Source of the DNA: Eledone cirrhosa
Taxonomy: Eukaryota
DNA length: 64,000 bases
Direction: 5' to 3'
Assembly: GCA_964016885.1 (NCBI GenBank)
Contig: OZ024742.1
Span: forward strand, 262,136,001-262,200,000
This document shows, in pieces, positions 10,978-62,532 of the stretch. The position numbers and the translations under genes are program-made. Within the stretch, counting starts at the first letter, position 1. Each line of letters begins with the position of its first letter. The notes beneath the pieces were generated by a model. That model did not search any database and had not been told where the DNA came from. It saw only the letters and a list, made by a program, of their open reading frames with translations.

Positions 10978-11011
<34 letters not shown>

Positions 11012-11083: not shown

Positions 11084-11115
<32 letters not shown>

Positions 11116-11166
11116 ATTATATATATAAATATATATTATATATATATTATATATATATATATATAT

Positions 11167-11198
<32 letters not shown>

Positions 11199-11317
11199 AT
11201 ATATATTATATATATATATTATATATATAAATATATATTATATACATATATTATATATATATATATTATATATATATATTATATATATAAATATATATTA
11301 TATATATATATATATAT

Positions 11318-11348
<31 letters not shown>

Positions 11349-11376
11349 AATATATATTATATATATATATATATAT

Positions 11377-11408
<32 letters not shown>

Positions 11409-11476
11409 ATATTATATATATATATTATATATATAAATATATATTATATACATATATTATATATATATATATATAT

Positions 11477-11508
<32 letters not shown>

Positions 11509-12607: not shown

Positions 12608-12810
12608 GGAACGAGTAGGACCCCGACGGCTGAGCTCAAGCCGTTTCGACGGCTAATTCTGGACTAATTTAGTCCAGAATTAACCGTCAAAACGGCTTGA
12701 GCTCAGCCATCGGGGTCCTACTCGTTCCTATTACTCACTCTACTACCCTAAGTATTGAGTACTTTAGTGCGTTATGGTCCACCTGGTTCCTTACCAAATT
12801 TCCTTCGTTA
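12608..12810 (+). mobile_element. Fold-back element: ~120-bp palindrome plus ~80-bp tail; contains the 3' half of a hammerhead
   Basis: Arms 12608-12667 and 12669-12728 are near-perfect reverse complements; homologous to 22891-23082 and 8160-8258. Confidence 0.85.
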
Positions 12811-15042: not shown

Positions 15043-16146
15043 TTTCGTTTCTGAATTTGTTTAGCAAGATTCTTTATCTGAAATCGTGTGTTGAAACCGA
15101 TATTGTTATACTTTGGGAGGGTCATATTGCCAATAAGAAACACACGCACCAGTTGCTTTAACTTCAATTTATTATATATTTATAAATTTATAAATTTACA
15201 TATTTACAAACTTATAAATTTCTGGTTGGTTGGTTGGTTCCACAACCAGATAGTTGTTTATATATAGTCATAGTCCTTTCGTCACACACTCTGTGACCTC
15301 TTCAGTGACTGGGGATTCCTTTCCTTTGTTTCTGTGCCTTTCCTTTCTTCTATCCTACGCCATTTTGTTTCTGTGTGTGTGTTGTGTGCTCAGTTTGCGC
15401 ATGCGCCACATCCGGGTGTCTGTGTGTGTTTGTGTTCATTTATCTATTTGTTTATTTATTTATTTATTTATTTATTGTTGGTTGGTTGTTTGTTCTATGT
15501 GTGTGTGTGTTTTCATTTTGTCCTGTGTGTGTTTTCATTTTGTCCTTAATTGTAAGTTGTTTGTTCTATGTGTGTGTGTGTTTTCATTTTGTCCTGTGTG
15601 TGTTTTCATTTTGTCCTTAATTGTAAGTTGTGATGTTGCTGTTCCACTCATATTTTCTAGTTAATTTTGGTTTTAATTCTTTTATGCTTACTGCCTCTGT
15701 AATTTGCCTAAACATTGCGTCTTTTCTGTGTGTGGATTCTATTTTAATTTCTATGTTCTCTAGTCTACCCCTGTGTTCTATCTTAGCATGTTGGTAGAGC
15801 ACAGATGATTCTTTATTATCTTGGAGGTCTCGCCAGTGTTCATTTATTCGTTCCCCTATACTATGAGCTGTCTCACCTATGTACACTATATTTTTGTTTC
15901 TACATTGTCCTTCTGTACATCTTATGCTATACACTACATTTCTAGTTTTACAGTTAATATGGGGGCTTACTTTACAGGTTATACATTTCTATGACTATAT
16001 ATAAACAACTATCTGGTTGTGGAACCAACCAACCAACCAGAAATTTCTAAGTTTGTAAATTTAAAAATATATAATAAATAGAAGTGAAAGCAACTTGTGC
16101 GTGTGTTTCTTATTGGCAACATGACCCTCCCAAAGTATAACAATAT
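15043..16146 (-). mobile_element. Penelope-like element 3' part: GIY-YIG ORF end (15617-~15985), 3' pLTR with HHR, inverted pLTR segment 15989-16146
   Basis: VYSIRC...YIGET...RINEH...EAVSI GIY-YIG motif; 15989-16146 is the reverse complement of ~15098-15273. Confidence 0.88.
15266..15310 (-). ncRNA. Minimal type I hammerhead ribozyme
   Basis: Minus strand reads AGTCA-CTGAAGA-G GTCACA gagtg TGTGAC-GAAA-GGAC-TA^TGACT: perfect 5-bp stem I, 6-bp stem II, intact core. Confidence 0.85.
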
Positions 16147-16152
16147 ATATAT

Positions 16153-16338
<186 letters not shown>

Positions 16339-18789: not shown

Positions 18790-19524
18790 ATATTATATAT
18801 TATATATATATATATATCTATTATATTATATATAGATGGTGAGGTCATTAACAATAATTCTCTTAATAAACATCAGGATGCATCCTATAAAAGCAATAAA
18901 CAACATCGAAACCGTAATAGACGAGTTACTTGGTATAATGCTCCATTTAATTTACAAATTAAGGATAATATACCTAAAAAATTCTTTAATATCCTAGAGA
19001 AAAACTTCCCGCCAAACCACAAATACCATCAAATCTTAAATAGATCAACGGTTAAATTCTCCTACTCAACAACCAAAAACATAAAACAAAATATAAGTGC
19101 CTATAATGCATATAAATGTAAAAAAACCATGAGTATACCACCAGTATATCAAACTAACCATAATATCTCCTCAGATACAGGATTCACGAAAAGTTGTAAC
19201 TGTAGAAACAAGGCAAACTGTCTATTAAAAGGAAATTGCCTTGTTAATAACATAGTATATAATTGTAAAGTTAACACTAAGGACTCAATTTATTCATATA
19301 TAGGAGCTACCTCTAACAAATTTAAGGTAAGATTTAATACCCACAAACATAGTTTTTAAAAATGCCGCACTAGCTAATACAACATCTCTAGCTGAAATAA
19401 TTAATAGTTATAGAAAGAGGAATATAGATTATGACCTGACCTGGAGTGTGCTCAAAAGGGCCACCCCTTATCAAAATAGTAGATATGAATGTAGATTGTG
19501 TTCCCAAGAACTTTTTGAAATAAT

Positions 19525-19658
19525 TGTTTCTACTTTAGGCACAAGGCCAGCAATTACCCAGTGCATTACTGGTACTTTATTTTATCGACCCCGTAAGGAT
19601 GAAAGGCAAAGTCAACCTCGCCGGGATTTGAACTCAGATCGTAAAGGGACGTAACTAT
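19525..19658 (-). mobile_element. 5'-truncated SINE with Nin-like domain inserted in the PLE ORF
   Basis: Reverse complement of GCCTTTCATCCTTACGGGGTCGATAAAATAAAGTACCAG; flanked by ATAAT duplication; homologous to copies at 39005 and 41069. Confidence 0.8.
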
Positions 19659-19747
19659 ATAATGAAATCTAAGGATATCCTATTAAATAAGCGACAGGAA
19701 TTAATAATATCGTGTAATCATAAACTGAGGAAAACCTTTAAATATTA

Positions 19748-19964
19748 TAAACCTAATTAACATACACTTTAGAAATTAATATATAAACTGTTTTTAATTT
19801 AGTTAACCTATAATTAATATTCTATTACTGATGAACTACATAATTCTGCTTTAAATATTATATACCTAATTAATATACACTTTAGAAATTAATATATAAA
19901 CTATTTTTAATTTAGTTAACCTATAATTAATATTCTACTACTGATGAACTACATAATTTTGCTT
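19748..19964. repeat. Tandem duplication of ~110 bp
   Basis: ACCTAATTAA..ACACTTTAGAAATT...ACTGATGAACTACATAATT occurs twice. Confidence 0.85.
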
Positions 19965-20174
19965 TCCTTCTTACAACTATCATTTCCTAAAACTGATACC
20001 ATTAAGTAAACATATATAATGCTTTAACTTCAGGTTATGACTCTATGTTCCTTGAAAACTATATATATTTATTATTTCTCACTAATAAATTTAATCCCCC
20101 CCCCCCAATAATTATATGTATATGTAAGTGTGTATGTGTGTATATATATGTATGTATGTATGTATATATGCATG

Positions 20175-21492: not shown

Positions 21493-21497
21493 GTATA

Positions 21498-22800
21498 TCC
21501 ATTGTTTTTGGAAGTCATCCGGATAGTGATTTGTTTATATTACTTTAATAAGTCATAGTGTTAAGGACAATTAGAAAAAGACGGAGAGAAAGAAAAAACG
21601 TGGAGAGGTATCGGAGAGAGAGAGATGCATGGAGAAGACAAGAAAGAGATAAGTAAAGACAGGAGGAAAGGAAGAAAGAAGAAAAAAGGAAGAAATAAGA
21701 AAAACAGAGGAAAGCAACAGAGATATTAAGTCAACAGACAGATAGAAAAACTCAAGAGAGAGAAATTTTATTAGAGAAATTATATGAGAGAAATGTTATA
21801 TAGAGAGAGAGGGAGATTATGAAAACTTTTATGAACTTTTATTAAATTTTTATAACACAATGAGTGTATAGCAGTGATTAAGAGAAATCATTTACGTTTT
21901 GTATGGCTATATTGTTGGCTTGAGTAAACATAATTTCTATTTTCAGGACATGCGTATCTATATGTATGTATATATACATATGTATTTGTATGTCTTTGCA
22001 TAAAATACTAATCTCTATACCAAGGGTACATTTTGAACTCAGATTTTGGTATATTGATCTCAAGTTTCTAAACTAAACATATGGTCATTATTGAACAATG
22101 TTTAATTTCTCATATTATATATCTATGTCCCATTCATGAATATTGATACTTATATTTATATTTTTATTATTCATTTCATATAAATTGTTAACTTAACTTA
22201 ATATGACATGACGTAAAGTTGTTACTGTCCCCCTCTCTCTATATACTATTTCTCTCTCTTGAGTTTCTCTTTCTGTATGATGACTTGATATCTCTCTGTT
22301 GCTTTCCTTTGTTTTTCTTATTCCTTCCTTTTCTTTCTTTTTTATTTCCTCCTATCTTTATCTATCTCTTTCTTTTCTCCATACTTTTCTCTCTCTCTCC
22401 GATATTTCTCCAAGTTTTCTTTCTCTTTTCTTTCTCTCTCTCTGTCTTTGTTCTTTTCTCTTTCTTTCTCTCCATCTTTTTCTAATTGTGCTTAACACTA
22501 TGACTTATTATATGAACAAATCACTATCCAGACAGCCTCCAAAAGTAATGGTTGTATTTTAAAGGGTACGTCAAACCTATTTGTAAAACTGTTATATATT
22601 GTATTTTGTCTGATGAAGGCATACCATAATTTAATGTGGTATCCCTGAAAAATGTATAATGAAATAAATATGGTTTTATAAATATAGTTTCCATTTATTA
22701 ATATCGTATATCTACTCCAAAAATTTGTCGAGTGCTTTATATCAGTTATAAAAATATTTACTTGTTGTATCCCAACAATTTTAAATAGAACTTTTGCATA
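21498..22800 (+). mobile_element. Non-coding PLE-type element with diverged ~320-bp inverted arms (21498-~21815 / ~22228-22550) and an HHR
   Basis: GGATAGTGATTTGTT..AATAAGTCATAGTGTTAAG versus CTTAACACTATGACTTATT..AACAAATCACTATCC; purine-rich and pyrimidine-rich mirrored arms. Confidence 0.65.
22602..22666 (+). ncRNA. Type I hammerhead-like motif
   Basis: TATTTTGT-CTGATGA-AGGcATACCA..TGGTATcCCT-GAAA-AATGTA-TA^ATGAAATA; stem I pairs with two G-U wobbles. Confidence 0.7.
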
Positions 22801-22812: not shown

Positions 22813-22890
<78 letters not shown>

Positions 22891-22892
<2 letters not shown>

Positions 22893-23082
22893 AATGAGTA
22901 CGACCCCGACGGCTGAGCTCAAGCCATTTCGACGGCTAATTCTGGACAGAATTAGCCGTCGAAACGGCTTGAGCTCAGCTGTAGGGGTCATACTCGTTCC
23001 TATTACCCACTCTACTACCCTAAGTATTCAGTACTTTGGTGCGTTATGGTCCACCTGGTTCCTTACCACATTTCCTTCGTTA
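22891..23082 (+). mobile_element. Second copy of the fold-back half-hammerhead element
   Basis: 110-bp palindrome 22891-23000 plus the same tail as 12729-12810. Confidence 0.85.
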
Positions 23083-23158: not shown

Positions 23159-26100
23159 TCATCATCATCATCATCATCACCGTTTTACGTCCGTTCTTCC
23201 ACGCTAGCATGGGTTAGACGGGTTGTCCTGTTGTGGGCAGTGTCTGGTCGGCTGACCATGCCTTGCTCATACAGGAACTGATCTGGCTTGATTTCTACAG
23301 CTGGATGCCCTTCCTAACACCAACCTCATTTACAGTGAGTGCTGGGTGCTTTTTCGTGGCGCCTACACGTCCACTTTACAGTGTGGGCTGGGTGCTTTTT
23401 TGCCGTGGCACCTCCACGACCACCTTGCGGTGGGGGGGGGGGGGCATATTGTTTATATGCTTCAGCATGTACCCATGGGAGGTCGGGTACCCTGTATTAC
23501 TGCGTGACGCCAGAAGTCACGGTCGTGTGTCATTGACTTTGAGAGGTGTAGTTGGGTAAGGTCGGCTTTTATCACCTCATCCCAAGTCATCTTGGGTCTC
23601 CCCACTCCGCGGTTTCCATCAACTTCTAGTGCTCTGCACCTTTTTATGCAGCTGTCATCCTTCATACGCATCACATGTCCATACCAGCGTAACCGCCTCT
23701 CCTGCACGCAGCATTTGATTCCTCTTATGCTCAGTCTCTCTCTCAATTCATTTATGCTTTGTCGTTCACGTATATTACTGTTACACATCCATCGGAGCAT
23801 GCAGGCTTCGTTTCTCTCTAATCTACGTAAGTCTTCCACCTTCAGCGCCCAGGTCTCACTACCATGCAACATCGCTGTTCGGATACACGCATCATACAGT
23901 CTGCCTTTCATTCTGAGGGAGAAGCCTTTTGCAGCTAGCAGTGGTAGTACTTCCCTAAACTTCTTCCATCCCGTTCTTACCCTAGTTATTGTACTTTCTG
24001 AGCACCCACCTCCGTTGCTAATTCGGTCACCTAGGTAGCAGAAGCTGTCTACTGTTTCTACAGGGCCCTCCCAGAGATTGGTGGTACTTGTTTCCTGTGG
24101 CTGTTTGCTTGCTGTTTCAGCACAGCTGCTGCATGTGAATCCTACATTCTTAATTAAGCTTCCTGAGATCCCGCTACATCTCTTGTGTACCCATTGTTTG
24201 CATTTGGGGCAAAGAATGGAGTTCCTACCTACACCTTTCCTACATACTGAGCAAGGCCATTTCCCTGAGGGGATCTGGGTTCTGTTTTCTCGTCTACTTA
24301 TAAGGACCTTAGTCTTTGTCATGTTGACTTTGAGGCCCTTTCTCTCTAGTCCCTGCTTCCAGGTTTGGAATTTATTCTCTAGTTCTACCATAGATTCAGC
24401 TATGAGTGCGAGGTCATCAGCATACAGGAGTTCCCATGGGCATCCGGTCTTAAACTCCTCCGTTATTGCCTGCAGGACTATGATGAACAGGAGAGGGCTA
24501 AGAACAGAGCCCTGGTGGACCCCAACCTGTACGCTAAATTCCTCGCTATACTCATTGCCAATCCTAACTTTGCTGATTGCTCCCCTATACATGGCTTGTA
24601 CCGCTTTCACAAGCCATTCATCTACTCCTAGTTTTCTAAGAGCCCACCAGATTACTGCACGTGGAACTCTGTCAAAGGCTTTCTCAAGGTCGACAAATGC
24701 CAAGTAGAGTGGCTTACTTTTAGCTAGGTACTTTTCCTGTAATTGCCTCACAAGGAAGAGCGCATCAGTGGTGCCTTTCCCTGGTACAAACCCAAATTGC
24801 ATCTCGTCTATATTCACCCGGTCCCTAATCAGCTGTGCTATAACTCTTTCTGTTACTTTCATGACCTGGTCCATCAACTTTATACCTCTATAGTTTCCTC
24901 TATCTAGTGCATCGCCTTTACCTTTGTAGCAGTTGACAATGATGCTACTGCACCAATCTTTTGGTATGGCCCCCTCTAGTATTACCTGGTTAACGATACG
25001 TGTGGTTATAGTGTGACCTACAGACCCAGATGCCTTCAGCATCTCGGCAGCTATACCCGATGGACCGGTTGCCTTCCCTATCTTCATATCTCTGATTGCC
25101 TTACTTACTACGCTGCCGCTGACTTGTACTGCTGGTCCCTCTATAGGGTCTACGTGGGGTAGGGTCTCTTCTTCCCATGCATTCTCCTCATTTAGTAATC
25201 TATCATAATGACTCTTCCATGCATCTTTCTTCTCAGCACTTGTGAGGGCAAGCTCACCTTTATCATTCCGGATACACTTCTCTCCAATGACATCACAACT
25301 ATCTCTGACACACTGCCTCGCAATCTTGAATACCTCCTGTTTCTGGTCCTCACGTTGTAAAACATGCTTGAATTTTCTATCCTCTGCTTCCCTCCTAGCT
25401 AAGTATACTTGTCGCCTAGCTTCCCTCTTGGTCTCTATGTAATGTACCCTGCTCCCCCCGTTCTTCCATTCTTTCCATGCCTGTCTCTTGGCCTTGACTG
25501 CTTCATCTACCTTATTGTTCCACCACCAAGTCACTCTCCTCCTGCTTGAGGTCTTACTCCAGCCACAAACCTCATCCGTCGCCTCTAGTAAGTTATTTTT
25601 TAGGAACTCCCAGTTCTCTTCTACGTTAAATGTCTCTATCTGTTCTTCTTTACTGTCGTAGGCGTTGAGTAAAATATCTTTAAATCTGTTACTGGTTGAG
25701 GGGACTTTCAGCTTCCAGATCTTTCTTCTCCAGGTTGGCCTCTGTTTCAGGGCTCGTCTAGTTCTGACCGTGAGGTCGCTGACAACTAAGCTATGTTGGG
25801 ATGTACATTCCTCACTAGGGAAGGCTTTTGTGTTTACGACCGTCCATCTGTCACGTCCTCTGATGAGGATAAAATCTAACTGACTAGAGTGCTCCCCTGA
25901 TCTATAGGTGATCAGGTGGTTGTCGGGTTTTTTAAAGTTTGTGTTACATATCGACATGTCATTGGCGTCGCAGAATTCTAGAAGTCTGAATCCTTCCTCA
26001 TTCCTTGTGCCAACTCCATGGCCTCCATGTACTCTATTGAAGCCGTCGCAGTGTTTACCTACGTGTCCGTTAAAATCTCCTGCAATGATTAGGAAGTCCT

Positions 26101-26599
26101 TGTCGTCTGTTAGAGCAGTAGTGTGTATTAGGGACTCGTAAAACCTATCCTTAAGTTCGTCTGGCAGCCCCGATTGGGGTGCGTAAGCTGATATTATTGT
26201 GGTAATTGTCTTATTCAGGACTAGTCTGAGTTTAATGATTCTTGCATTTACCCTGTACACTGAGATTACTTTATCTACCCACTTGTCAGCTAATAGTATA
26301 CCTACACCACCCATCCCATCGTCATTTCCCACCCAGAAAAATTTGTAGCACTGGCTTTTTCCTACAAGGACTCTAGCAGACCCTCCTCTCCATCTAGTCT
26401 CTTGCACACAGCATACATCAACTTCCTTTCGCTCTAGCATTTCTACGATTTCTCCTGCTCTTCCTTTCATTGAGCCTACATTGATGGTACCAACTCGGAG
26501 TTTTGGGCATTTGTCGACACTCGTAGGGGAGGGTCTCTGGGTTGGCGCTTCACGTGGGTGCTTGGTAGCTCGCAGATTCATATTTCATCTATTGATTCA
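23159..26599 (-). mobile_element. RTE LINE family A, complete ORF, 5' UTR truncated
   Basis: Uninterrupted ORF, ~300-nt 3' UTR, (GAT)n tail, both ends in (TA)n. Confidence 0.95.
23462..26581 (-). CDS. RTE ORF, 1039 aa: APE endonuclease + reverse transcriptase with internal PHD-like Cys/His finger
   Basis: GTINVGS, QETRW, SAYAPQ, GDFNGH, SQLDFIL, SQH; NYRGIKL, FVDLEKAFD, QGSVLSP, YADD, FCYLG; CxxC..CxxC..HxxC..CxxC. Confidence 0.95.
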   Translation of the reverse strand: MNLRATKHPREAPTQRPSPTSVDKCPKLRVGTINVGSMKGRAGEIVEMLERKEVDVCCVQETRWRGGSARVLVGKSQCYKFFWVGNDDGMGGVGILLADKWVDKVISVYRVNARIIKLRLVLNKTITTIISAYAPQSGLPDELKDRFYESLIHTTALTDDKDFLIIAGDFNGHVGKHCDGFNRVHGGHGVGTRNEEGFRLLEFCDANDMSICNTNFKKPDNHLITYRSGEHSSQLDFILIRGRDRWTVVNTKAFPSEECTSQHSLVVSDLTVRTRRALKQRPTWRRKIWKLKVPSTSNRFKDILLNAYDSKEEQIETFNVEENWEFLKNNLLEATDEVCGWSKTSSRRRVTWWWNNKVDEAVKAKRQAWKEWKNGGSRVHYIETKREARRQVYLARREAEDRKFKHVLQREDQKQEVFKIARQCVRDSCDVIGEKCIRNDKGELALTSAEKKDAWKSHYDRLLNEENAWEEETLPHVDPIEGPAVQVSGSVVSKAIRDMKIGKATGPSGIAAEMLKASGSVGHTITTRIVNQVILEGAIPKDWCSSIIVNCYKGKGDALDRGNYRGIKLMDQVMKVTERVIAQLIRDRVNIDEMQFGFVPGKGTTDALFLVRQLQEKYLAKSKPLYLAFVDLEKAFDRVPRAVIWWALRKLGVDEWLVKAVQAMYRGAISKVRIGNEYSEEFSVQVGVHQGSVLSPLLFIIVLQAITEEFKTGCPWELLYADDLALIAESMVELENKFQTWKQGLERKGLKVNMTKTKVLISRRENRTQIPSGKWPCSVCRKGVGRNSILCPKCKQWVHKRCSGISGSLIKNVGFTCSSCAETASKQPQETSTTNLWEGPVETVDSFCYLGDRISNGGGCSESTITRVRTGWKKFREVLPLLAAKGFSLRMKGRLYDACIRTAMLHGSETWALKVEDLRRLERNEACMLRWMCNSNIRERQSINELRERLSIRGIKCCVQERRLRWYGHVMRMKDDSCIKRCRALEVDGNRGVGRPKMTWDEVIKADLTQLHLSKSMTHDRDFWRHAVIQGTRPPMGTC

Positions 26600-26799: not shown

Positions 26800-29700
26800 A
26801 TCTATCTATCTAAGGCGGGTAAAATTCCCGAGATCCATGGACGAGTTCTCTCCAGCGGTCTCTGTCCCTCATTATCGCTGCCATATCCTGCATCTCCAAC
26901 AGACCAGTGTCTGTCCTTAGGGCATCAACATATGTTAACCTTGGTCTTCCTCTTCTAGTGTGTCCATGTAGGGGCTCCCAAAGGAGCACTGAGTGCAATG
27001 TCAACTCTGGATGTCAGTGAGCATGTCCAGCCAACCTCAGTCTCCTCTGTGTCACTTTTGAGCTGACTTTTGGGATGCTCCCATACAGTTCTGAGTTTTT
27101 CATCCTCAGTGTATACTGATTAATGTTCAGAGCCATCCTCAGCATTCTCGTGTAGCACCCATCCACCATCTGAGTGAGTCTCTTGGTCAGTGTCCAAGTC
27201 TCAGACCCACACAGCAGCACAGACTCCACTACAGCAATGAAGAGGCGGATTTTCAGGTCTCTACGAAGGTCAGACTTCCACACCGATCTCAAGCTGTGAC
27301 ACGCCGCCCAGGCCTTGCTCTTCCTCTCAACCACATCATCCTCAGTATTCCCAATCTTTGCTCCCAAATACAGGAAGTCCTCAACCAATTCCAGCGGCTT
27401 CCCGCCTACATTAGTGATCCCCTCTGGCTTCTCAACATTCTCTACCAGATATTTTGTTTTAGTCTCATTCATTCTCAGCCCCACACTCATCGACACAGTC
27501 TCAACCTCCCGCATCAAATCCTCTGCCTCCTTCACTGTATTTGTCACCAAAACTATGTCGTCGGCAAATTCAGCATCCGATACCTTTTTCGCCCCAACTC
27601 TCCTGCTCTGAGCCGGTGCTACAGTAGAGCCAGAGTCCTGGTGTTTCTCCAGTGCAAGGCGCATACAATAGTCCACTACGATGACAAAAAGGTAGGGAGC
27701 CAATGTATCTCCCTGGAGCACTCCAGCCAGTATCTCAAAGAACTCTGTCATCCCATCAGGTGTAATGACTTGGGCTTTGGTGTTGGTGTAGAGCAGTGAT
27801 ATCAGGTCCACTATCCTCTTGGGGATTCCATAAGCCTGTAAGATCTTCATCAGGCAGTAACGGTCCACAGAATCAAAGGCCTTCCTAAAGTCAATGAAAA
27901 CCATGACCGCAGGAAGGCACTTTGCTCTAGCTCCCTCTAATATCCTCCTCAGCATCAGGATGTGACTGGTGGTTGATCTACCCTCTCTGAAGCCGTTCTG
28001 GTTGTCCCTGAGCTTCTTCTCCATCTCAGGCTGGATCCTGTTAAGAATCATCCTGTTGAGGGTCTTTGCCACAAGTGACGTCAGTGAGATCCCCCGGTAG
28101 TTGTTGGTGTTAGAGAGATCTCCCTTCTTTGGCACTGGGACGATGTTACTGATCCTCCACTGATTCGGGGCAACTCCTTTCTCCAGTGCCCCGTTACAGA
28201 ACCCCAGGATGATATCATCAAAATCACACCTCTTCATCACCTCTGATGCCACTCCATCTTCTCCATGAACCTTGCCCTCCTTGATCTTCTTCTTGGCTCT
28301 CTGAAGCTCCTCTCTGGTGAAGGGCTCTGTCTCAACATTCAGTTCCTCAAACAGCCGCCTGATCTCCCCAGTGCTCTGGGCTGTGGAGGGTGGCTCTCCT
28401 AGTAGGGTCCTAAAATGGTCTAGCCATTTCCTCTTCCTATCCTCGGGCCCCGTTCCCTGGATCTGACTCGAACACCTTTTCTTCCTCCCTGTGATCTCGT
28501 TGATGATCATCCAGCTCTCCTTACATCCAGATCTGTCAACCGCTCTCTCCACACTTCTGATCTTCTCTATCAGTGCCTCCTCTCTGACCTCAGTGTAAGC
28601 GGTACAGAGCTCTTCCCTCATCACCTCCACAGTCTCCATCCTCTCCTCCGTAGGATCAGCATAGAATTGGTCCCTGGCAGCTTTCAGGTGTTCTCTGGCT
28701 GCACACACTTTTGGGTTTGCAGAGCTGAGGTGCTTCCCTTTGTTCTTTTTCCTCGGCACCAGGGTTTCACTTGCTTTCGCCACTGCATTGGTGAAGTGCC
28801 CGTACCTCCTTGTCACACTCTCCTCAGTCCATCCAATCTCTCTCTCCTCTGACTCTCCACACAGAGCACTAAACCTGTTTCTCACTTCCACTGTGAACCT
28901 CTCCTGTAGCTTATCATCTTCCTTGAAAGCTCCCCAGTCATAGATTGTTCTCTGGGGCTGAGCCTTGCTCTTTCTTAAGCTCACGCGGACCTCACTCATA
29001 ACAAGCCGGTGGTCACTACCCAGTGTACTGAAATAGCTGTATGGTTTCGTGTTCAGAACACTATTCCGCCACTTTTTCCTCACCAGAATGAAATCAATCT
29101 GGGACTTGGACAGGTGCATATCTGAGATGTAGGTCCACATCTCCCCCAGATTCTTCCTAAACCTTAGGTTGGTCGCCATCAAGTTCGCCTCCAGCAGGGT
29201 GTCTCTCAGTAGTCTTCCATTTCGGTTGGTGTTGTTATGGAAGTACCAGCAAGGATCTTCACTGCCCTCCTTACTCAGATGTGCATTGAAGTCCCCCAAA
29301 ACAAGCAGGATATTGTGTGCCTGAGTGGTGTTGACAGCTCTACACACCTCCTCATGGAACTCCTCGGCATTCACATCACTGTCCCCCTCGGTTGGACTAT
29401 AGGCTGAGATGACTGTCAGTCTTGGGTTTCCATTGAAGGTCACCCTCAACACTCGCGGGGAGATAGGCATTATTTCCCTCACCAACAGATTGGTTTTTGC
29501 ACTGAACATAAAACCCACTCCTCCCACTGCAGCATTTGTTGTGTTCTTCACTGCCGATGTAGTGATGAGCTGGCTCTTCCTCCCGATCATCACACTCCTC
29601 ACGGGCTCATCGTGTAGAATCCTGTGTTCTTGGATTGCAAGTATCTGTATACCACTCTCCTCGAACAGATGTCCCAACTCCTCTCTCTTCTCCAGCGTTC

Positions 29701-30120
29701 GAATAGTCCTCACATTCAAAGTGCCCATTTTGATGGCTCTCCTGCAGGACAAAACTGTATTCTTTATATTTGTCTCAGAGACAGCTGATCCATCATCCAC
29801 TGGCCCTCTCTGTGGCTCTAAGCCAGCAGAGTCATAACGACCAGACTGCTCCTTGACAGTGTAATTAGGGGCTCTAACCCTAGTGCTGTTAGATCGACTC
29901 TCCATATTTCTTTTCAATAGCTGACAATACCTTACCGGCGCCACTCGAATAAGGTAGTTATTTAACCCATAAATGGAGCCCTAACAGGTACTACCACCCC
30001 GGGCCAGGGCAGACCTGGGAGTCATGACAACTAAGGGGTAACTCCACATTCCCCACATCTCCTGAACTCCCGAACTGGAGCCTTGCCACTGGATGTAGTT
30101 TAATGTCATACCCAGGACAT
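26800..30120 (-). mobile_element. Full-length RTE LINE family E with (TAGA)n tail and Ceph-domain-like 5' UTR
   Basis: APE+RT ORF; 5' end ATGTCCTGGGTATGACATTAAACTACATCC..GGCTCCAG..; both flanks (TA)n. Confidence 0.92.
26810..29905 (-). pseudogene. RTE family E ORF (APE + RT) with one premature stop at 27014-27016
   Basis: GTLNVRT, QEHR, GDFNAH, SDH, NYRGISL, FIDFRKAFD, QGDTLAP, FADD. The TGA corresponds to CGA in the sister copy (~13563), and the frame continues to 26810. Confidence 0.9.
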
Positions 30121-39514: not shown

Positions 39515-39696
39515 CTGACACTCTCTCAGAAGATGAAGATGACTACATTGTCAGGGAAGCTGGAGAAGGAGTTAGTGTATGTGCTGTTCCGAGCTACAAC
39601 CATAATTCAGATTTTACTCCAACTCCAGGTGGACCATTTTCAGCCCTTACACCATCAATGTGGCCACAAGATATTTTGTCCAAATTAAACAACCCT
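39515..39696 (+). CDS. SGSM3: Coding exon of small G protein signaling modulator 3 homologue (N-terminal region)
   Basis: tttcag/...CCT/gtaagt; translates DTLSEDEDD...[25 protein letters not shown], matching the SGSM3 N-terminal motif [16 protein letters not shown] as recalled from memory. Confidence 0.85.
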
Positions 39697-41385: not shown

Positions 41386-42575
41386 TCAGAAATGACTGGA
41401 TTTCCTGGATTTGCAGTTGTATTCCAGGTCGCATTCCCGCACTAGCCCCCAGATATAGTCCCCCATCATTTTTTCATTGTAGTGGCCCTGGTACCTCCGC
41501 TCTATCTCTTTCACATCTTGGTGGATTCGTTCGCCTTGTTCTTCTGAGTAGGCACCCATATTGTCCTTGAATTTTTCGAGGTGAGCGTCCAGCATATGGA
41601 GTTTAAGCAACATCCTGCATCCCATGGCGCCAAAAGCCTTTATCAGATCCTGCACCAGTTGCTGGTAGCTTTCAGCGCTGTAGTTGCCCAGGAAGCCCTT
41701 AACAACTGCCTTGAAATAGATCCATGCTGTTCTCTCAATCCTATTGAGCTTATTGGAGAACTCGGTAGACTCAAACACCTTCTTTTTCTGAGGTCCAACA
41801 AACATTCCACCTTTGATTTTGGCCTCAGATAACTTGGAGAAGAACTCAAGAAGGTACTTAAAAGCGGCTGATTCTTGGTTTAGAGCCTTCACAAACTGCT
41901 TCATCAACCCCAACTTAATGTGCAGTGGCGGCATGAGCACAATCCTGGGATCGCTCCCAGTTCTTTCTTTTGCAGTGGTCAGAGGTGGCTCTGCTGTCCC
42001 AAAGGCAGAGGAAGCATTGGAATTTGATAAAGCCTCCTTGGAGTCCAAGCAGGAAAGCCACCATCTTGAAGTCTCCAATGATTTCCCAATTGTACAGGTT
42101 GTATTGCAGAGCTTCCAAGAGGACTTTCACACTGTAGTAATCTTCCTTCAGGCAGACTGAATGAGCTAGGGGCAGTGTCGGGAACTTGTTTTCATTGTGG
42201 AGGAGGACAGCCTTCAAACTTGTGGTGGAGCTGTCTATAAATAGCCGCGACTCCTTGGGCACAAACGGCACCCCAATAATGTCAAACAGTCCAGGCACAT
42301 CATGGCAGAAGCAGAGGCCATTCCTAAGAGTGTAAAAGCCTGAGAAAGGTTCGTGTCGACTTCTCTGACTTGTCACCTGCACTTCCTCCTTGACAAAGTT
42401 CCACTGCTTCATCCTGGAGACGAATAGCTCTGCATTGGACTTGGTCAGACCCATATCCCTGATCAAGTCATTGACTTTTTTTGGGTTTGGGAAGTGAGGA
42501 ACTTTTTCTGGTACCTCAGGCAAGTAATCCAAGTCCTCAGCATCCATCTCCTCCTCTTCATCAGAATACTTGTCT
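41386..42575 (-). pseudogene. Chapaev3-like transposase, frameshifted near 41950-41990
   Basis: Overlapping ORFs 41915-42598 and 41386-42078 give consecutive transposase motifs; possible intron upstream (acceptor ~42575, donor ~42692). Confidence 0.8.
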
Positions 42576-43147
42576 TGGAAAATAAATTTGATATGCAATA
42601 CAAAATAAATATTGGAAAGGGAAATACATATTTAAATAATATAAAAGAACACTAATCATACTAATGAAAATTTGTGCTTAAAACACAACTTACCCTTTAT
42701 TCAGGGTGTGAAAATCCAGTATCAATAAATCTCTTTAATCCACTTTTTAACAATTTTATACTTTATTGCATTTTTATAATTTTCTTTAGGTATTACTCTT
42801 TATTTTATAATTTTAATTTAACCTGAAACATATATAAAAAAATAATTTACCATAAGCAAATTAAATTTACATACAACGTAAAATCCAGCATACAAATAAT
42901 TCTAGTGAATAACTTAGAATTTTTACAAACCCAAACTTTTAACTGTTTAATAGCACTTTTTTAAAAATTTATTTGGGACCTAAGCAACACAAAAAAGTGA
43001 TTACAAGCCAGGAACAGAGAAAAATTTTTTTTTTGTTACGCAGTGTTATTAAGTGTTTATTTGGAATTTATAATTAGGTGAGTTTGACTCCAGTTGAATG
43101 TTATTGTTTACAGGTAATCAATTTAAGTACAGTATGTTAAAGATAGT

Positions 43148-43300: not shown

Positions 43301-43689
43301 CTGGTATCCTCTACAGTCTTGTACTCTAGGTCACTTAATGCTGAGCAAACTGGTTAAGCATCAGTCTAATGGGCCTCCAGGCTGGAAAAAAATATAGATA
43401 ATTTATTGAATGATTCTTCAGAAGGTATGCAGGTTAAGATTAGACACATATTTTAGAGTTATTATTTATGTGTACATTTTTGTGTCCCTGGTTTTTATCT
43501 GGTCTTGGGTTACCTCTTTGTAAAAGCCAGTGAGTTCAATTGATGCTGATGATGATTCCAGATTTGTTTGTTAATATATGTTCTGTTTATTTCACTAAGT
43601 TATTTTATTTTAATTATTTTGTTGGGGTTTAGTTATTCCTTTTTTCTTACTTATGTTGCTGATTTTTTGTATCTAGAGAGGATTTAAAG

Positions 43690-44455
43690 TATTTTGTAGA
43701 AGCAGTTAAAGATCCAGTCTTGCCTAGAGTTTAGTATGTTCCTATGGGTCATGATCTTCTGCACTTCAATCAAGCATAGGTCACATTCCCTCTGTTCACC
43801 CTAGAAGTGTTTAGCAGATCGTATTATCAACCATGATATTTGATATTTCATGATTTTCTTCTCAAGTCTCATATTTTTCTCACCAGAGCAGTTGTTTTAT
43901 AAAAGTTTGCATTTTTGATTGAACACGTGTGGATGTGGAGCTGTTTTTTTAATTGGTTCACTTTTGCACCAATATAATTATATGTACCCATGATGGATGT
44001 TATCTTACATTCATATTCAATATTGTTGTACAAGCACTTGCCCCTTAGGGGACAGTTTTCCGGTTATCAGCAGTTGCAGTCCCTTATATCATGTTTGCTG
44101 CTAGATGGTGTTCCAGTATTAGGTGGGATCAGTATTAGTGGTTTTGTGATAGTTATTGTTGCTTGTGTTCCCCTACATCCTATAATTTCCCTGTTGAGGG
44201 GCATATTGGCATTCTGGCTCTGTTCTATCGAGTGATTGCTATTTTATCTGGTTGTTGTATTGTTGGGGAAACTATGTTTGTTATGCTTATTTAGTCCCCT
44301 GTGGTTTATATTTGCAGTACAGTTTTCTAGGTTTAGAGTTGTAGAGTCTGATAGTTTACTTGTATGATTATTAAGAATTTTATAGAATCTATGAGACAGT
44401 AGGACATTATTTTCAATTATTTTAAAGAAACCACTAATTTGCATACCAAGTGATT
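43690..44455 (-). mobile_element. Decayed PLE RT-tail/GIY-YIG fragment
   Basis: HRFYKILNNHTSKLS, CNC..NCPLRGKCL..IEYECKI..YNYIG on the minus strand; related to the 18835 element. Confidence 0.65.
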
Positions 44456-44580
44456 TTACAGTCGGCTTTGCCAAAAATTAAAAATCACTTGGTATGCAAG
44501 TTAGGCTAATCAGCCGATGTATACATTTGAGAATACTATGTATTCCCAGCAGTTCCAGTGGGTAGCAGCGGTGAGAATAC

Positions 44581-44770: not shown

Positions 44771-44860
44771 CACTCACGAATACATTTAAAATATCCACCA
44801 TGCTAGAGCGAAAACAAATTTTGTTTTTAGATATGTATATATATATGTATATATATATAT

Positions 44861-46298
44861 AAGTAGTAACACAACAGTTAGTTCACCATACCGAGAAACC
44901 CAAGCTATACAAAACCATGGGCAAAAGGTGTAAGGGAGATAACTGCGAATATCTGAAAACCAATGTTCGAGGAGTTGATTAGAAAATTAGAATGTTGTTG
45001 TTATTCAATCCGGAGCTTTGTAGTTATGCAAGAGGTGTTTCCAGATATGTGGACAACGTGAGAAGATTTCATTTCTTGAATTTAGGCAATCGCTATTGCA
45101 TAATCTCCTTAGAATATTTATCCTTTCTTCAATACACAGTCCACAAGACAGATTGCCCCTTGCATATGGTTTGGACTTAGTGATAGCTTTCCATTGAATG
45201 GAGTAGTCTATACCTGAGTCTTTGAGGGTCCATATGTGGTTCGCGAGCTTCATGGATGATCGTATGTCCGGGTACCTAAAGGTCGACTGATGGTTCAGGA
45301 AGTGTTCCTTAAATTGGCCCTCTGCCATACCCACATAGGATTTGACCTCCTGTGGTTGATTTGGTCGGTTGGAAGTGACCACAGTTTTGTAAACTACAGC
45401 GGGTGTGTTGCATTACTGTTGAAGGGGACAAGCTTCAGGCTTTCGGCAAGAGCATCCAACATTTTTAGCCCTCTTAGATAGACACTTTCCCATAGGTCAC
45501 AAATACTGCTCCATCTTTAACAGACACAGAGTAAAACTAGGGTACTCCTGCGCTAAGAATATGAAGGCCCACATCACCAACAGTCCTAAGAGGGGCACCC
45601 CACCAGGACGCTCTTGCCGAAAGCCTGAAGCTTGTCCCTTTCAACAGCGATGCAACACACCGGTTGTAGTTTATGAAGCTGTGGTCACTACCAACTGACC
45701 AAATCAAGCACAGTAGGTCAAATCATACGTGGGTATGGTGGAGGACCGATTTAAGGAATGCTTCCTGAACCATCAGTCGACCTTTAGGTGAGTGGACAAA
45801 CGATCATCCACGAAGCTCATGAGCCATGTATGGTCCCTCAAAGACTCAGGTATAGACTACTCCATTCAATGGAAAGCTATCACTAAGTCCAAACCATATG
45901 CAAGGGGCAATCTGTCTTGTGGACTGTGTATTGAAGAAAGGATAAATATCCTAAGGAGATTGTGCAATAGCGATCGCCTAAATTCAAGAAATGACATCTT
46001 CTCACGTTGTCCACATGTCTGGAAACACCTCTTGCATAACTACAAAGCTCCGGATTGAATAACAACATTCTAATTTTCTAATCAACTCGAACATTGGTTT
46101 CCGGATATTCGCAGTTATCTCCCTTACAACTTTTGCCCATGGTTTTGTATCGCTTGGGTGAAGTGACCGTTTCTGCACATGCGTGTTCATACGATTGTTC
46201 TTCCTGTTCTGTATAACCAATACCAGTCCGAGCTGAAGATCCACATAAGGTGAAACAATTGTTCTCGGTATGGTGAAATAACTGTTGTGTTACTACTT
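44861..46298. mobile_element. PLE 3' end present as a ~600-bp inverted duplication (44861-45478 / 45586-46298)
   Basis: GIY-YIG ORFs 45005-45382 (-) and 45792-46058 (+) are near-identical (YVGM..FKE.F.NH, CGLCIEE, LNSRNEI..CPH). Confidence 0.9.
46228..46268 (+). ncRNA. Minimal type I hammerhead in the PLE pLTR
   Basis: CCGAG-CTGAAGA-tCC acataa GGt-GAAA-CAATTG-TT^CTCGG. Confidence 0.78.
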
Positions 46299-46359
46299 CT
46301 ACCAAACTCGTCCCATGAATTGAGTGCTCTACCACTACGGATATTACCTTCCAGTGTTC

Positions 46360-46397
<38 letters not shown>

Positions 46398-48260: not shown

Positions 48261-49056
48261 CTTGACATAAAACACGCTCATAAAACACATCCACATGCTC
48301 ATACACGCAACCTAAACACAACAATTTACACAAGAAATTTACTTAGACGAGATAATGCATTCAGCAATTGAGATCTTCCCCCTGCTTAATTCAGACGAGA
48401 AATTTCTGCAGGATCTTGATACCAGGAACTGTAAGCTTAAGTTGCTGCCTGCAAGTGGCAACATGAAATGGGAGATGCTGGATGGGAAAATAGTGCAGAA
48501 GTTGAATGTGCTCATAGGGAAGATCACTTGAGACCACAAATTAGCCATATTCAGAGACATAGTTTACTCAGTCTGCAAAGATACCCATGGAGTAATACAA
48601 TCCAAAACAAAAATACCACTTTGGAAATCCAGACGTCAGCTAGAGACCACTGAAGGGGCATCGTGTTTGTATTTTAACGCATGCCAAGGAAAATAACTCT
48701 GAGTGAGTCATAGGTGGCTTGTTGGCACTGGCAATACTGTTGATGTCTCACTGCTACCATGACTACCAACATTATTTTTCCAAACTCAAGAAAGCATTTA
48801 AATATAAGTTTGAAAGCAGAGGCAACAGAGAGAAGTTCCAGCTACATCCTATCAACAAAATTTCCATTCAGTTTAAATGTAGAACCCTCCGATATTCCAG
48901 TGACTAAATGTCAGCAGAAGGGAATCATGATCTGTATGCGGCCCAGCCCCCTTAGAGTGTAAGAAGCTAAGGGTTGAAACACTTGAAAGTGGTTTCTTCT
49001 CTGAAGTTCTTTTGATGTCCAGCTCTCCTGATAGTTTCCTATCACAATATATATAT

Positions 49057-49810
49057 ATACTATATATAGAGTTATAAACTCAAACAGTCTTTTACAATTA
49101 AATAGTTCAAAGAAAGATATTTCTGAGCCATGTAATACAAATGTATATATGATAAACACTAATACAAGTATATAAGTGTTTGTATTGCAAATGACCAAGT
49201 TAGCTAGATTGAAAAATACTAATTAAATTATACTAATTAATTAGTATTTTTCAATCTAGCTAACTTGGTCATTTGCAATACAAACACTTATATACTTGTA
49301 TTAGTGTTTATCATATATTCATTTGTATTACACGGCTCAGAAATATCTTTCTTTGAGCTATTTAATTGTAAAAGACTGTTTGAGTTTATAACTTTATATA
49401 TAGTATTCTCGGCTCCATATGTTGAGCTAAATTTTTTAGTCCCATAAAACCGGCTGCTATTTCTGGCGGCACGAGTATAGGACTGGCTAGACGCTGGGAA
49501 ACATGTGCGTTCAACAACACATTTTTCTCAGTCTTCCTAAGTATTTTGAAGTGAAACATACCAATTTCTGGATACCTGCAGATGAGCACAGAAATGGAAA
49601 TTTTCACTTATTGCGAAACAGATTTGAGTTTTGAAATTTATATTTGTCCAGGTATCACGGCTATTGCCAATATGGGTTTGCTTTTATTGATTTATTATTT
49701 TAAATCGAGACAGGCAAACTGTATTAATTAGTATTTTTCAATCTAGCTAACTTGGTCATTTGCAATACAAACACTTATATACTTGTATTAGTGTTTATCA
49801 TATATTCATT

Positions 49811-49815
<5 letters not shown>
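49057..49815 (+). mobile_element. Retrozyme-like non-coding element: 170-bp inverted arm + 487-bp monomer with HHR + 93-bp terminal direct repeat
   Basis: 49057-49226 is the reverse complement of 49237-49406; 49236-49328 is repeated at 49723-49815. Confidence 0.8.
49571..49656 (+). ncRNA. Type I hammerhead with CAGATGA core variant
   Basis: GATACCTG-CAGATGA-GCA..TGC-GAAA-CAGAT..ATTTG-TC^CAGGTATC; perfect 8-bp stem I. Confidence 0.78.
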
Positions 49816-49881
<66 letters not shown>

Positions 49882-49885
49882 ATAT

Positions 49886-50907
49886 ATAAAGAATTAGTAT
49901 ATCTACCAACATATATATATAGGTTTTGTCTTAGTAACTTTGTGGTTCAATGCAAGGGGATGCAGAACAATTATATGAAAGACGTAAAATAAGAAAATTA
50001 TAAAAATTAACTTACTTACTAAAATTTCACTCCAACTAATTAGTTTCTGAAAGGGAATAAACATGGTTTCCGAATGGAACCCATGGAGACAGCCTTTTGT
50101 CATCAGGAAGTCTATTCTCAGCTAATTTCCCAGGCGATGCGTGGACACAGGGAACTTATACAAAAATAATTCAGTGGATGGAAAAAGGCAAGCGTGGACT
50201 AAATTCCAAGAGATTGAAAAAATCACTGCCTACTTGGTCGGTGGCAAATTCAAAAGAATCAATCACGTGACATCGAGGTTAATCAGTGAGGAGTGGGGTG
50301 TTAAGAAGACAGTAGCCGAACTATTACTGTGAACTATAGTAGCAATTTTGGCAAATTTTTGCTCAACAAAATAATTTGGAGATAATTATAAAGAATTAGT
50401 ATATCTACCAACATATATATATACAGATGCATACCTATGCTAGCAAATATATAGGTTTTGTCTTAGTAACTTTGATATACTAATTCTTTATAATTATCTC
50501 CAAATTATTTTGTTGAGCAAAAATTTGCCAAAACTGCTACTATAGTTCATAGTAATAGTTCAGCTACTGTCTTCTTAACACCCTACTCCTCACTGATTAA
50601 CCTCGATGTCACGTGATTGATTCTTTTGAATTTGCCACCGACCAAGTAGGCAGTGATTTTTTTCAATGTCTTGGAATTTAGTCCACGCTTGCTTTTTTCC
50701 ATCCACTGAATTATTTTTGTATAAGTTGCCTGTGTCCACGCATCGCCTGGGAAATTAGCTGAGAATAGACTTCCTGATGACGAAAGGCTTTCTCCATGGG
50801 TTCCATTCGGAAACCATGTTTATTCCCTTTCAGAAACTAATTAGTTGGAATGAAATTTTAGTAAGTAAGTTAATTTTTATAATTTTCTTATTTTACGTCT
50901 TTCATAT
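49886..50907 (-). mobile_element. Second retrozyme-like element: ~530-bp monomer, terminal direct repeat, ~430-bp inverted arm; HHR cores at ~50054-50118 (-) and 50763-50825 (+)
   Basis: 49972-50406 is the reverse complement of 50474-50907; 49886-49942 repeats 50388-50474 with a ~30-nt gap; CTGATGA-CGAA..TTCG-GAAA-CCATG core. Confidence 0.78.
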
Positions 50908-50909
50908 AT

Positions 50910-51005
<96 letters not shown>

Positions 51006-51118
51006 ATGTATAAATATGTGTGTGTGTGTGTGTGCATTTGTTGCAGAAAGTTTCACAATTGGCCCTCTTCACTGTGATTAACTATATTTTTTAAACATCA
51101 ATCATTTTTTTGCTTCAG

Positions 51119-51185
51119 CCTGTAGATGCCAAAGGTCAGTTGGATTACCATTATGATGAATTTGGTTTCAAAGTGGAAGAAGAAG
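51119..51185 (+). CDS. SGSM3: Next SGSM3 coding exon (GC donor)
   Basis: ttttgcttcag/CCT...GAAG/gcaagt; PVDAKGQLDYHYDEFGFKVEEE is in frame with the previous exon and matches the SGSM3 YDEFGF motif. Confidence 0.82.
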
Positions 51186-60949: not shown

Positions 60950-62060
60950 ATAGTAACCATTCCGCCTTGTGCCTTCCTGACCTATTATTTATCTCTTGTT
61001 TTAATCGGCTGATGAAAATGGCTTCCCTAATTCTTAAATTTCCCATATTCCTTTCACTTGCCTCTGTGGTGACCTTAATGTCTTAGTTGCAGCATCGTTC
61101 ATGATATTTTTTTATGGAAAAGGCTCTCATTGTCACATGTTCCTTGATCCATGTCTGTAGTCTTCTTATGTATGAGGAGTTTCATTTTTTGCATGTAATC
61201 TTATAGACCACATACGCTGTCATGCACACTTCTGTGTTCTTGATGGGACAATTAGGAAGTATGCATATATCGCTGTATGTAGGTTGGTGTCTGTGGAGCA
61301 GTCTCCTCAATGATGGTCCCAAGTGTGCCAGTTGTATATTCAGTACCTCCTTATGGATGGCTTGTCTGATGGCAGCTGTCATCTTATTAAAATATGGCAG
61401 CTTTAGGTAACATATGTTATCCTTAGGGGTACATGTCCTTGTTCTTTTATGTGTTGCTGTCTTGGCATTTCAGTGTTTGGTGAGAGAAGTAGGGTAGCCA
61501 TTTTTGGTGGGAACTCTTTGAAATTCCACCGTGCTGGTATGTCTGTTGCTACCCTCGCTGCATCTATTGTCTATCCAGATCTCATTGTGTATATAGGCCA
61601 TTGTGGCTCTGTAAGGGAGGGTGGAGTTATGATGTACAAAAATGTCTCTGCAAGCATCCTTCTTATAAAATTTGATGTATATCGATCTCTCCTCTGTAAC
61701 TCTTAGTGTAAAGTCGATTCGAGAGAGGGATCTAGTGGTGTCTGGATGTTAACCTCAAATTTTATGTGTGCATCAATGTTTTTGAAGATGTAGATTTTAA
61801 CGGCTTCTTCACGTGATAAAGTGAGCATAAAGATGTCACCCATGTACCTGGAGAAGTAGGAGCAAGAGTGGCAGGTAGTGGCTGCTGTGGGCTGCAACTA
61901 GTTCCATGTACTGATAGCCAGCAGGCCTAGTGAGACTTGATCCCATTCGGAAGTCCTGAGATTTGTTTGTAGCCCTCAAACGTAGCCCTCAAACGTAGCC
62001 CTCAAACTGGAAAAAGGTGTTGCACCTAACGATAGAGAGCAGTTTGCAGATGTCAGCAGT
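60950..62060 (-). mobile_element. Decayed PLE (RT + GIY-YIG)
   Basis: FSRYMGDIF..IKFEV, KLPYF..AIRQAIHKE, C.LPNCPI..C...VVYKITCKK. Confidence 0.75.
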
Positions 62061-62314
62061 AGAATTCTTTCCCTTGTATATATATATATTGTATATAAGA
62101 GAATATTAGTCTAGGACTTCTTTTATACCATAAACGTGGTTTTGTCTTTGCGTGTAATTGTTTTTCACCGCTCCTATTAATGACGTATTATATTCGTTTT
62201 TTCCCGTTCTTTGCCAGGGAACGTTTCCACGAACCAAAGTATCGTCTTCCTGTCTTCCTCCGGTTGCAACGTTTTTTGAAATATTCACTTCTGCGTTCAC
62301 AAATTGACTTTGTT

Positions 62315-62365
62315 AGTTTCAGAAGATCCCGTTAAGGGTGAAAGCAGCGATTCTTTGCTTAAACT
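62315..62365 (+). ncRNA. Type I hammerhead with CAGAAGA core variant
   Basis: AGTTT-CAGAAGA-tCCC gttaa GGGt-GAAA-GCA..TGC-TT^AAACT. Confidence 0.65.
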
Positions 62366-62472
62366 TTAATCTGTTATTTTAATAAATATTTGCTCTACGG
62401 TTCTTATATATTTGATATATATTTATCCTTATCGAGCCCTCTTTGGATTTTAGTCTTCAAATTTATTATTAT

Positions 62473-62532
<60 letters not shown>

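Follow-up and report, generated by a model that had tools for sequence, protein, structure and literature searches.

PLE insertions have a characteristic form. In the typical structure of Penelope, an inverted copy adjoins two direct repeats and the inverted junction is palindromic (Arkhipova et al., 2013, PMC3846280; Craig et al., 2021, PMC8557442); the standard PLE insertion is thus made up of a unit, an overlap and an inverted copy of the 5' end (PMC8557442; PMC3846280; PMC8969392). The palindromic inverted junctions have been attributed to self-priming (PMC3846280), and the term 'twin priming' is absent from the PLE-focused papers found on inverted pseudo-LTRs. In vitro, an anole PLE initiates internally, downstream of the ribozyme, on uncleaved tandem RNA, and both DNA strands are nicked and extended (PMC11167929). 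For PLEs, a 2014 study that also describes opposite-strand ribozyme pairs 100-700 bp apart put forward reverse transcription of more than a unit of a ligated circle (PMC4209133). In the Hydra clade of PLEs, (TA)n is the target and the ribozyme is situated close to the 3' end (PMC8557442).

Retrozymes are the second system of interest. A PLE origin of these repeats has been proposed (PMC5680766), more-than-unit copying of a circle was suggested for them in 2020 (Cervera and de la Pena, 2020, PMC7229834), and the animal retrozymes have been argued to be non-autonomous PLE derivatives (Li, Clavereau and Pollet, 2026, bioRxiv 10.64898/2026.07.22.740005). This 2026 survey, the sample of which consists of vertebrates, three insects and one coral, gives family lengths of 51-972 bp, reports that dispersed monomers are frequent and requires at least two consecutive ribozyme units in an active element. 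In cephalopods, 235 type I hammerhead loci are known from the giant squid (PMC6962438).

Two non-coding, ribozyme-bearing elements lie tail to tail in a 64,000-nt stretch of Eledone cirrhosa DNA (the window), which is AT-rich and dense in (TA)n tracts, RTE-type LINE ORFs and GIY-YIG fragments. The 3' ends of element 1 (+ strand) and element 2 (- strand) are opposed across a shared (TA)n tract (Table 1), all four ends meet TA tracts via microhomologies of 3-4 nt, and a target-site duplication is unreadable within the (TA)n tract. The best explanation, which we consider likely as a whole, is that these are unrelated, non-autonomous, PLE-mobilised hammerhead elements (mini-PLEs of the non-LTR-retrozyme type), their units being 487 and 532 nt long, and that some 1.2 units of each were copied into one (TA)n microsatellite in independent insertions. 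A preliminary description of this DNA had reported two unrelated elements of like architecture, tail to tail in (TA)n, and the placing of the repeats, arms and ribozymes bears this out, the best blastn E between the two units being 0.16.

Table 1. Positions in the window of elements 1 and 2, of the (TA)n tracts at their ends and of the neighbouring PLE fragments.
Feature	Position	Strand	Remarks
Left (TA)n target remnant	49047..49059		Shares ATA with outer end of element 1 arm
Element 1 inverted arm	49057..49226	-	Copy of 49237-49406; 4 differences in 170 columns
Element 1 inversion junction	49227..49235		Inverted copy extended by 6 nt, and 3 further nt; palindromic ATTAAT end
Element 1 upstream direct repeat (5'-truncated second copy, pseudo-LTR)	49236..49328	+	
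Element 1 unit, 487 nt	49329..49815	+	Non-coding; GC content 33%; strong self-pairing
Element 1 type I hammerhead	49571..49656	+	C3 at 49579; predicted cleavage after GUC at 49648
Element 1 3' repeat	49723..49815	+	Enters TA tract with TAT microhomology; 167 nt past cleavage site
(TA)n tract common to both 3' ends	49813..49888		One TT interruption
Element 2 3' repeat	49885..49942	-	58 nt; 30-nt deletion flanked by ATATA runs
Element 2 unit, 532 nt	49943..50474	-	Non-coding; GC content 35%; strong self-pairing
Element 2 type I hammerhead	50029..50111	-	C3 at 50106; predicted cleavage after GUU at 50034
Element 2 upstream direct repeat, 88 nt	50387..50474	-	Holds 16-bp hairpin stem
Element 2 inverted arm, 435 nt	50474..50908	+	Copy of 50405-49972; 11 differences in 435 columns
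Second hammerhead copy in element 2 arm	50769..50851	+	C3 at 50774; predicted cleavage after 50846
Right (TA)n tract	50904..50993		Meets element 2 arm through ATAT microhomology
Fragment A, 5'-truncated PLE	15045-16160	-	Endonuclease remnant, hammerhead (C3 at 15305), inverted arm
Fragment B, 5'-truncated PLE	44858-46361	+	Endonuclease remnant, hammerhead (C3 at 46233), inverted arm
Fragment C, Hydra-type PLE remnant	18874-20100	+	Interrupted by 142-bp repeat; 113-bp tandem with CTGATGA cores in 3' UTR
Fragment D, ORF-less, ribozyme-bearing PLE-like end at TA tract	21495-22797	+	Old inverted arm, 73% identity
Fragment E, ORF-less, ribozyme-bearing PLE-like end at TA tract	62080-62476	+	
Fragment F, Hydra-type PLE remnant	43654-44504	-	Short inversion hairpin at 44434-44504

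The elements are flanked by exon candidates on the + strand that are in phase with each other (39629-39696 and 51119-51185) and, with these predictions on both sides, appear to be intronic in an animal host gene; we take the exon-candidate peptides to resemble the N-terminus of SGSM3. In host-sense transcripts the arms are predicted to form hairpins of 170 and 435 bp (-252 and -750 kcal/mol), so that the host would have acquired two long intronic hairpins, which may be a source of double-stranded RNA. The window also contains two long open endonuclease-RT frames of non-LTR retrotransposons (23462-26584 and 27014-29980, both on the - strand; 1040 and 988 aa), many decayed relatives of which are spread across it, and a frameshifted transposase-like ORF remnant without a significant Pfam match (41386-42631, - strand). 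Its other repeats include two related MITE-like palindromic elements of ~120 bp in TA tracts (12605-12731 and 22888-23003, 84% alike), a complex satellite of 98-bp units with a 25-bp sub-period and blocks every ~605 bp (554-4090), and a degenerate (AT)n tract of 5 kb within which LINE fragments are nested (7662-12607).

Element 1 amounts to 1.19 units and has a single sense-strand ribozyme. Its two direct repeats, with a period of 487, are identical at 93 of 93 positions (blastn E 1.6e-43), and its arm consists of the direct repeat and 78 nt of the body, so the anatomy given in the preliminary description (an arm, a 487-bp monomer with a hammerhead and a 93-bp repeat) stands as it was. Helices of 8 bp (p 0.93) and 7 bp (p 0.88) are predicted between body and repeat. 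Element 2 amounts to 1.17 units, likewise with a single sense-strand ribozyme, and its repeats, with a period of 532, differ by one 30-nt deletion and by no substitution in the remaining 58 nt. The hammerhead-bearing unit and the repeat had been recognised previously in this element, but its arm had been understated: it is 435 bp long, spans most of the unit, holds a second ribozyme and is separated from the copied segment by a loop of 68 nt. Partial tandem copies, adjacent inverted copies of 170 and 435 bp, and (TA)n targets are the marks of PLE insertion, in agreement with the mobilisation by PLEs that had been suggested.

A type I hammerhead is predicted in both units. A scan with a type I descriptor gave five motifs in the window, compared with a mean of 0.1 (maximum 1) in 30 Markov-resampled windows. 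The element 1 motif is one of the five, while both element 2 motifs exceed the stem II length limit of the descriptor and were placed by hand. Rfam gave no match to these ribozymes at gathering score, and the 21 matches obtained by E-value include no hammerhead family and are to hairpin-only, miRNA-type models below their gathering scores. The hammerhead of element 1 has stems I, II and III of 8, 3 and 6 bp, with a long stem III, and its core is CAGAUGA rather than CUGAUGA (U4>A); forcing the active fold is predicted to cost 2.1 kcal/mol. Among core variants, viroids with U4C are still infectious although its activity in vitro is reduced (Perreault, 2011, PMC3088659), our literature search for a U4A variant gave none, and self-cleavage of the element 1 ribozyme may or may not persist. 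The core in neighbouring fragment E is CAGAAGA, with U4>A as in element 1, which is to be read with the fact that the scan tolerated changes at that position only. The element 2 hammerhead has an intact core, a long stem-loop II, a palindromic stem III and an unpaired base on each side of stem II. Within the unit, both of its halves are predicted to pair with complementary segments elsewhere (p 0.94-0.99), and forcing the ribozyme fold would cost 13 kcal/mol.

Neither unit appears to encode a protein, as the preliminary description had it. The longest stop-free frame in the units is 79 aa, and a 49-codon frame starting from the AUG of the element 1 ribozyme core has no support as coding sequence. 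With the endonuclease fragment at 45008-45412 as query, three proteins were obtained among 17 candidates and one of these led to at least 150 relatives; a PLE profile was then made from 43 of 153 proteins, those of at least 600 aa, all of Hydra type. It matches A (15725-15976), C (18874-19754), F (43654-44432) and B (45014-46049) and, weakly, 61365-61715, reaches as far as the more distant GIY-YIG fragment A (iE 4e-6) and has no match over 49030-50930, so that no RT or GIY-YIG ORF was detected in either element. The best E of a tblastn search with the 153 proteins against 48900-51050 was 0.077. The preliminary description had allowed for the outcome that the monomers are ordinary pseudo-LTRs attached to PLE ORFs; no PLE coding remnant was found at the locus. 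The elements lack the RT plus GIY-YIG ORF of the autonomous PLEs (Hydra, Neptune, Poseidon) and share the lack of protein coding with retrozymes. The distance from repeat junction to ribozyme, 250-280 nt, is within the ordinary range of PLE 3' UTRs (~175 nt in B and ~310 nt in A), and the missing coding sequence therefore does not prove non-autonomy.

No second copy of either unit is present within the window, where each is known from one copy, and neither has nucleotide similarity to any PLE in it. An exact 27-nt pattern had no match in prokaryotic genome contigs, which is uninformative for an animal element, and four short element motifs are absent from the supplement of Craig et al. (2021), where line breaks may hide matches. 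A tRNA or SINE origin of the units was also considered and rejected (no tRNA genes found). As for the undescribed families of ~500 nt that had been suggested, neither unit was found described in the literature on cephalopod retrozymes, octopus hammerheads and Penelope inverted pseudo-LTRs (Repbase and Dfam were outside the scope of the search); their size is a known one, and each is represented here by a single copy.

The unit RNAs are highly self-paired, as are those of retrozymes. Circular folding gave z scores of -4.8 (element 1) and -4.0 (element 2) with 25 shuffles each, compared with -0.2 to -2.0 for four neighbouring ribozyme-bearing 3' ends and -0.5, -2.6 and -0.7 for three intron controls, and only one of 38 eligible control tiles, that holding the inversion hairpin of fragment F, was at -4 or below. 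The antisense units gave -4.0 (element 1) and -2.0 (element 2); the former value and the intron control at -2.6 count against the best explanation, as does the position of the ribozyme outside the direct repeats, unlike typical pseudo-LTRs. The isolated ribozyme regions fold no better than shuffles (z -1.4 to -1.9).

Six neighbouring PLE-like fragments (A-F, Table 1) serve as internal controls. Pfam did not recognise B, C or proteins P0001-P0003 (PF26215 appears as precomputed), so their identity as PLEs rests on the profile and on motifs. P0003 has RWR, DKT and CxCx5C, which are marks of the Hydra clade, the endonuclease end of B resembles Hydra-1_Obim by eye, and A is a more distant GIY-YIG sequence (Pfam E 2e-4, just under the cut-off; Atlas lead 0.96). 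In A, B, D and E, type I motifs are placed ~100-225 nt away from a 3' end that adjoins a TA tract or lies close to one (98 nt in B, ~116 in E and ~225 in A). Inverted arms (A, B, D) or a short hairpin (F) are present in four of the six, C has only its internal tandem, and E has none of these. In none of the six is the 3' end repeated upstream, and hence the overlap is taken as the sign that a unit was completed. Arms, the location of the ribozyme and the target site are shared with PLEs in general in this region, and only the unit plus overlap distinguishes elements 1 and 2.

The arms of the neighbours also bear on how arms are made. That of A breaks 3 nt 5' of the predicted cleavage site and the first arm piece of B 2 nt 5' of it; these are two among four breakpoints in three informative arms, for which a rough post hoc chance is ~1 in 2000. 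The 2-3 extra matching bases would be due either to stalling in the folded ribozyme or to run-off at a cleaved end plus chance matches. The element 2 arm, unlike those of A and B, reads through the cleavage site. The breakpoints hint at RNA-templated arms primed from the second target end, against which stands the published attribution of the palindromic junctions to self-priming (PMC3846280).

The following series of events would account for the two insertions. A source locus elsewhere would have given rise to an RNA in which the end of the unit continues into its start with the ribozyme site intact. A TA-targeting autonomous PLE, most likely of the Hydra clade, would then nick (TA)n, as is established in PLE biology, and reverse transcription would begin at an internal position, which lies downstream of the cleavage site by 167 nt in element 1 and by 149-179 nt in element 2. 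The copy crossed the ribozyme site, finished one unit and continued for 93 or 88 nt, as the sequence shows, and the main copies end 74 nt (element 1) and 91 nt (element 2) before a second cleavage site. The other target end would prime a second cDNA at an internal TA-like site, and joining of the two cDNA ends would yield the inverted arm; the 6-nt extension from the self-complementary ATTAAT end at the element 1 junction would fit annealing of two such ends. The arms carry 14 substitutions in 604 and the direct repeats none in 151, a difference that is not significant (P 0.085, or 0.13 without CpG changes), and no covariation is seen between arm and body copies. With ~2.4% arm divergence, these are young insertions.

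The template of this copying was an uncleaved tandem transcript or a ligated circle, which leave an equal footprint, and the linear transcript is favoured only slightly. Since there is one copy per family, the sequence does not separate the two. Permuted 3' ends would not be a necessary outcome of copying a circle, given that reverse transcription by PLEs begins at set positions inside the template. Reverse transcription of slightly more than one round of a circular RNA had been proposed in the preliminary description; the overlap and the self-pairing fit it, but the tandem transcript shares its footprint. As a sub-case of the best explanation it is possible, though less likely than not, that a covalently closed RNA circle of 487 or 532 nt, generated by double ribozyme cleavage and ligation, served as template and that the reverse transcriptase went round it once before stalling ~90 nt into displacing its own cDNA. 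That both unrelated units end at one unit plus 93 or 88 nt is in line with this, but the stops 74 and 91 nt before the second cleavage site are equally demanded by a linear RNA with a cleaved 5' end, and a multi-round product is absent at the locus. Both main copies and the element 2 arm cross an intact cleavage site, yet neighbours A and B, with their ORF remnants, likewise read through intact ribozymes. The strong self-pairing is a trait of retrozyme circles, and the element 2 ribozyme, with its halves paired away at a predicted cost of 13 kcal/mol, would resemble the locked ribozymes of plant retrozymes and viroids (PMC7229834); these are predictions from sequence and folding, however, and linear folding is as good as circular (-124.8 versus -119.4 and -119.9 versus -114.3 kcal/mol for the two units). 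Furthermore, the element 1 core carries U4>A, and the main substrate of the PLE protein in vitro is unprocessed RNA, with cleavage being dispensable (PMC11167929, 2024). Having one sense-strand ribozyme each, elements 1 and 2 cannot release a unit and are dead ends, and they are at most products of circles, not their sources.

A more far-reaching version, which we regard as rather doubtful, is that these are two undescribed families of long (487 and 532 nt), viroid-like, structured circular RNAs riding a TA-targeting PLE of Hydra type. Each insertion would then represent one rolling-circle round and a stereotyped ~90-nt strand-displacement overrun, the arm would be a second cDNA, primed by the opposite end of the target and templated by another RNA molecule, and the element 2 ribozyme would be locked shut in the circle.

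The elements might also be the ordinary 5'-truncated ends of two longer autonomous PLEs, in which synthesis stopped in the 3' UTR and restarted for ~90 nt at the usual initiation site before the arm was made, with the periods of 487 and 532 being accidents of one event each. The upstream non-coding lengths match normal 3' UTRs, so missing coding sequence would be expected, the ribozyme-to-3'-end distances are like those of neighbours B, E and A, and the majority of genomic PLE ribozymes are in solo truncated copies (PMC4209133). This is nonetheless unlikely: such a restart is seen in none of the six neighbours, tandem second copies are reported after full-length insertions (PMC8969392), the units are more structured than neighbouring 3' UTRs, and two adjacent accidents with near-equal overlap would be improbable. 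Non-coding captures between solo pseudo-LTRs are known (PMC3846280), but that the bodies are unrelated host DNA captured between short pseudo-LTRs, as in the rotifer Adineta, is very unlikely given that the ribozyme is in the body and not in the repeat and that the predicted helices of element 1 join the two. Finally, palindromes can arise as fold-back artefacts of assembly or library construction. Long inverted duplications next to microsatellites are prone to such artefacts, but this origin is scarcely credible here, where arms and bodies differ at 15 of 605 columns (three CpG-type, with changes on both sides), the arms end at biologically patterned TA microhomologies, and similar, more diverged arms (87, 91 and 73% identity) are present in the neighbours.

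Taking the elements as PLE-mobilised passengers, the best explanation, their affinities can be compared with the known systems. Like the animal non-LTR retrozymes (PMC7229834; Li et al., 2026), they are non-coding, have less than 50% GC and show one predicted type I hammerhead per unit, high self-pairing and co-occurrence with PLEs, with unit lengths inside the range of the 2026 survey. They are longer than the 170-400 nt invertebrate retrozyme circles of 2020 (PMC7229834), differ from retrozyme tandem arrays in having 1.2 units and an inverted arm, and, unlike animal retrozymes, have a long loop II (both elements) and a long stem III (element 1). With 1.19 and 1.17 units in place of two consecutive ribozyme-bearing ones, only the monomer-derivative class fits. 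With the endonuclease-containing PLEs (PMC8557442; PMC3846280) they share direct repeats, an inverted copy, a palindromic junction, unequal arm and body ends and an AT-rich target; they differ in having no ORF, a length of ~0.5 kb rather than 2-4 kb, and a ribozyme outside the direct repeat, with cleavage sites 74 and 91 nt upstream of the 3' repeats rather than inside a pseudo-LTR.

The mobiliser is probably a PLE of Hydra type, the candidate partner being assigned by motif style only. The elements have the (TA)n targeting and the canonical type I ribozyme near the 3' end of this clade (PMC8557442), and element 2 matches its ribozyme table, by eye, in the AC-led palindromic stem III, the allowed U17 and the flanking unpaired bases. 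Hydra-type protein fragments are 3-6 kb away, and elements 1 and 2, unlike Hydra-clade PLEs, have neither RT nor endonuclease and are without nucleotide similarity to the PLEs in the window. Chlamys PLEs such as MRC1 of Chlamydomonas are likewise non-autonomous, with pseudo-LTRs and head-to-tail insertions; the non-autonomous Chlamys differ in being green-algal and in having a 3' end that resembles their autonomous partners, and most Chlamys are without canonical ribozymes (PMC8557442).

Elements 1 and 2 thus work like retrozyme-type passengers of PLEs, with the unit number of an active retrozyme lacking at this locus, and are ordinary members of a described class; both the class and the circle hypothesis are already published. 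Their interest lies in the integration route of retrozymes and the in vivo role of PLE ribozymes, which are the questions they address. In what the 2020 and 2026 papers say of mobilisation by PLEs, it is proposed without integration footprints (PMC7229834; Li et al., 2026). Here, non-coding units with a ribozyme bear the marks of PLE integration and so lend such mobilisation direct structural support. An overlap exceeding the stretch between the cleavage site and the 3' end (167 and 179 nt) would call for a circle or an uncleaved multimer, and RNA templating would be required for inverted arms to pile up at the cleavage site; the arm breaks of A and B are a possible in vivo footprint of such ribozyme-linked, RNA-templated arm synthesis. 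If the two units were circular RNA families, their genomic copies would be a fossil record of the PLE machinery using circular, ribozyme-processed RNA in vivo.
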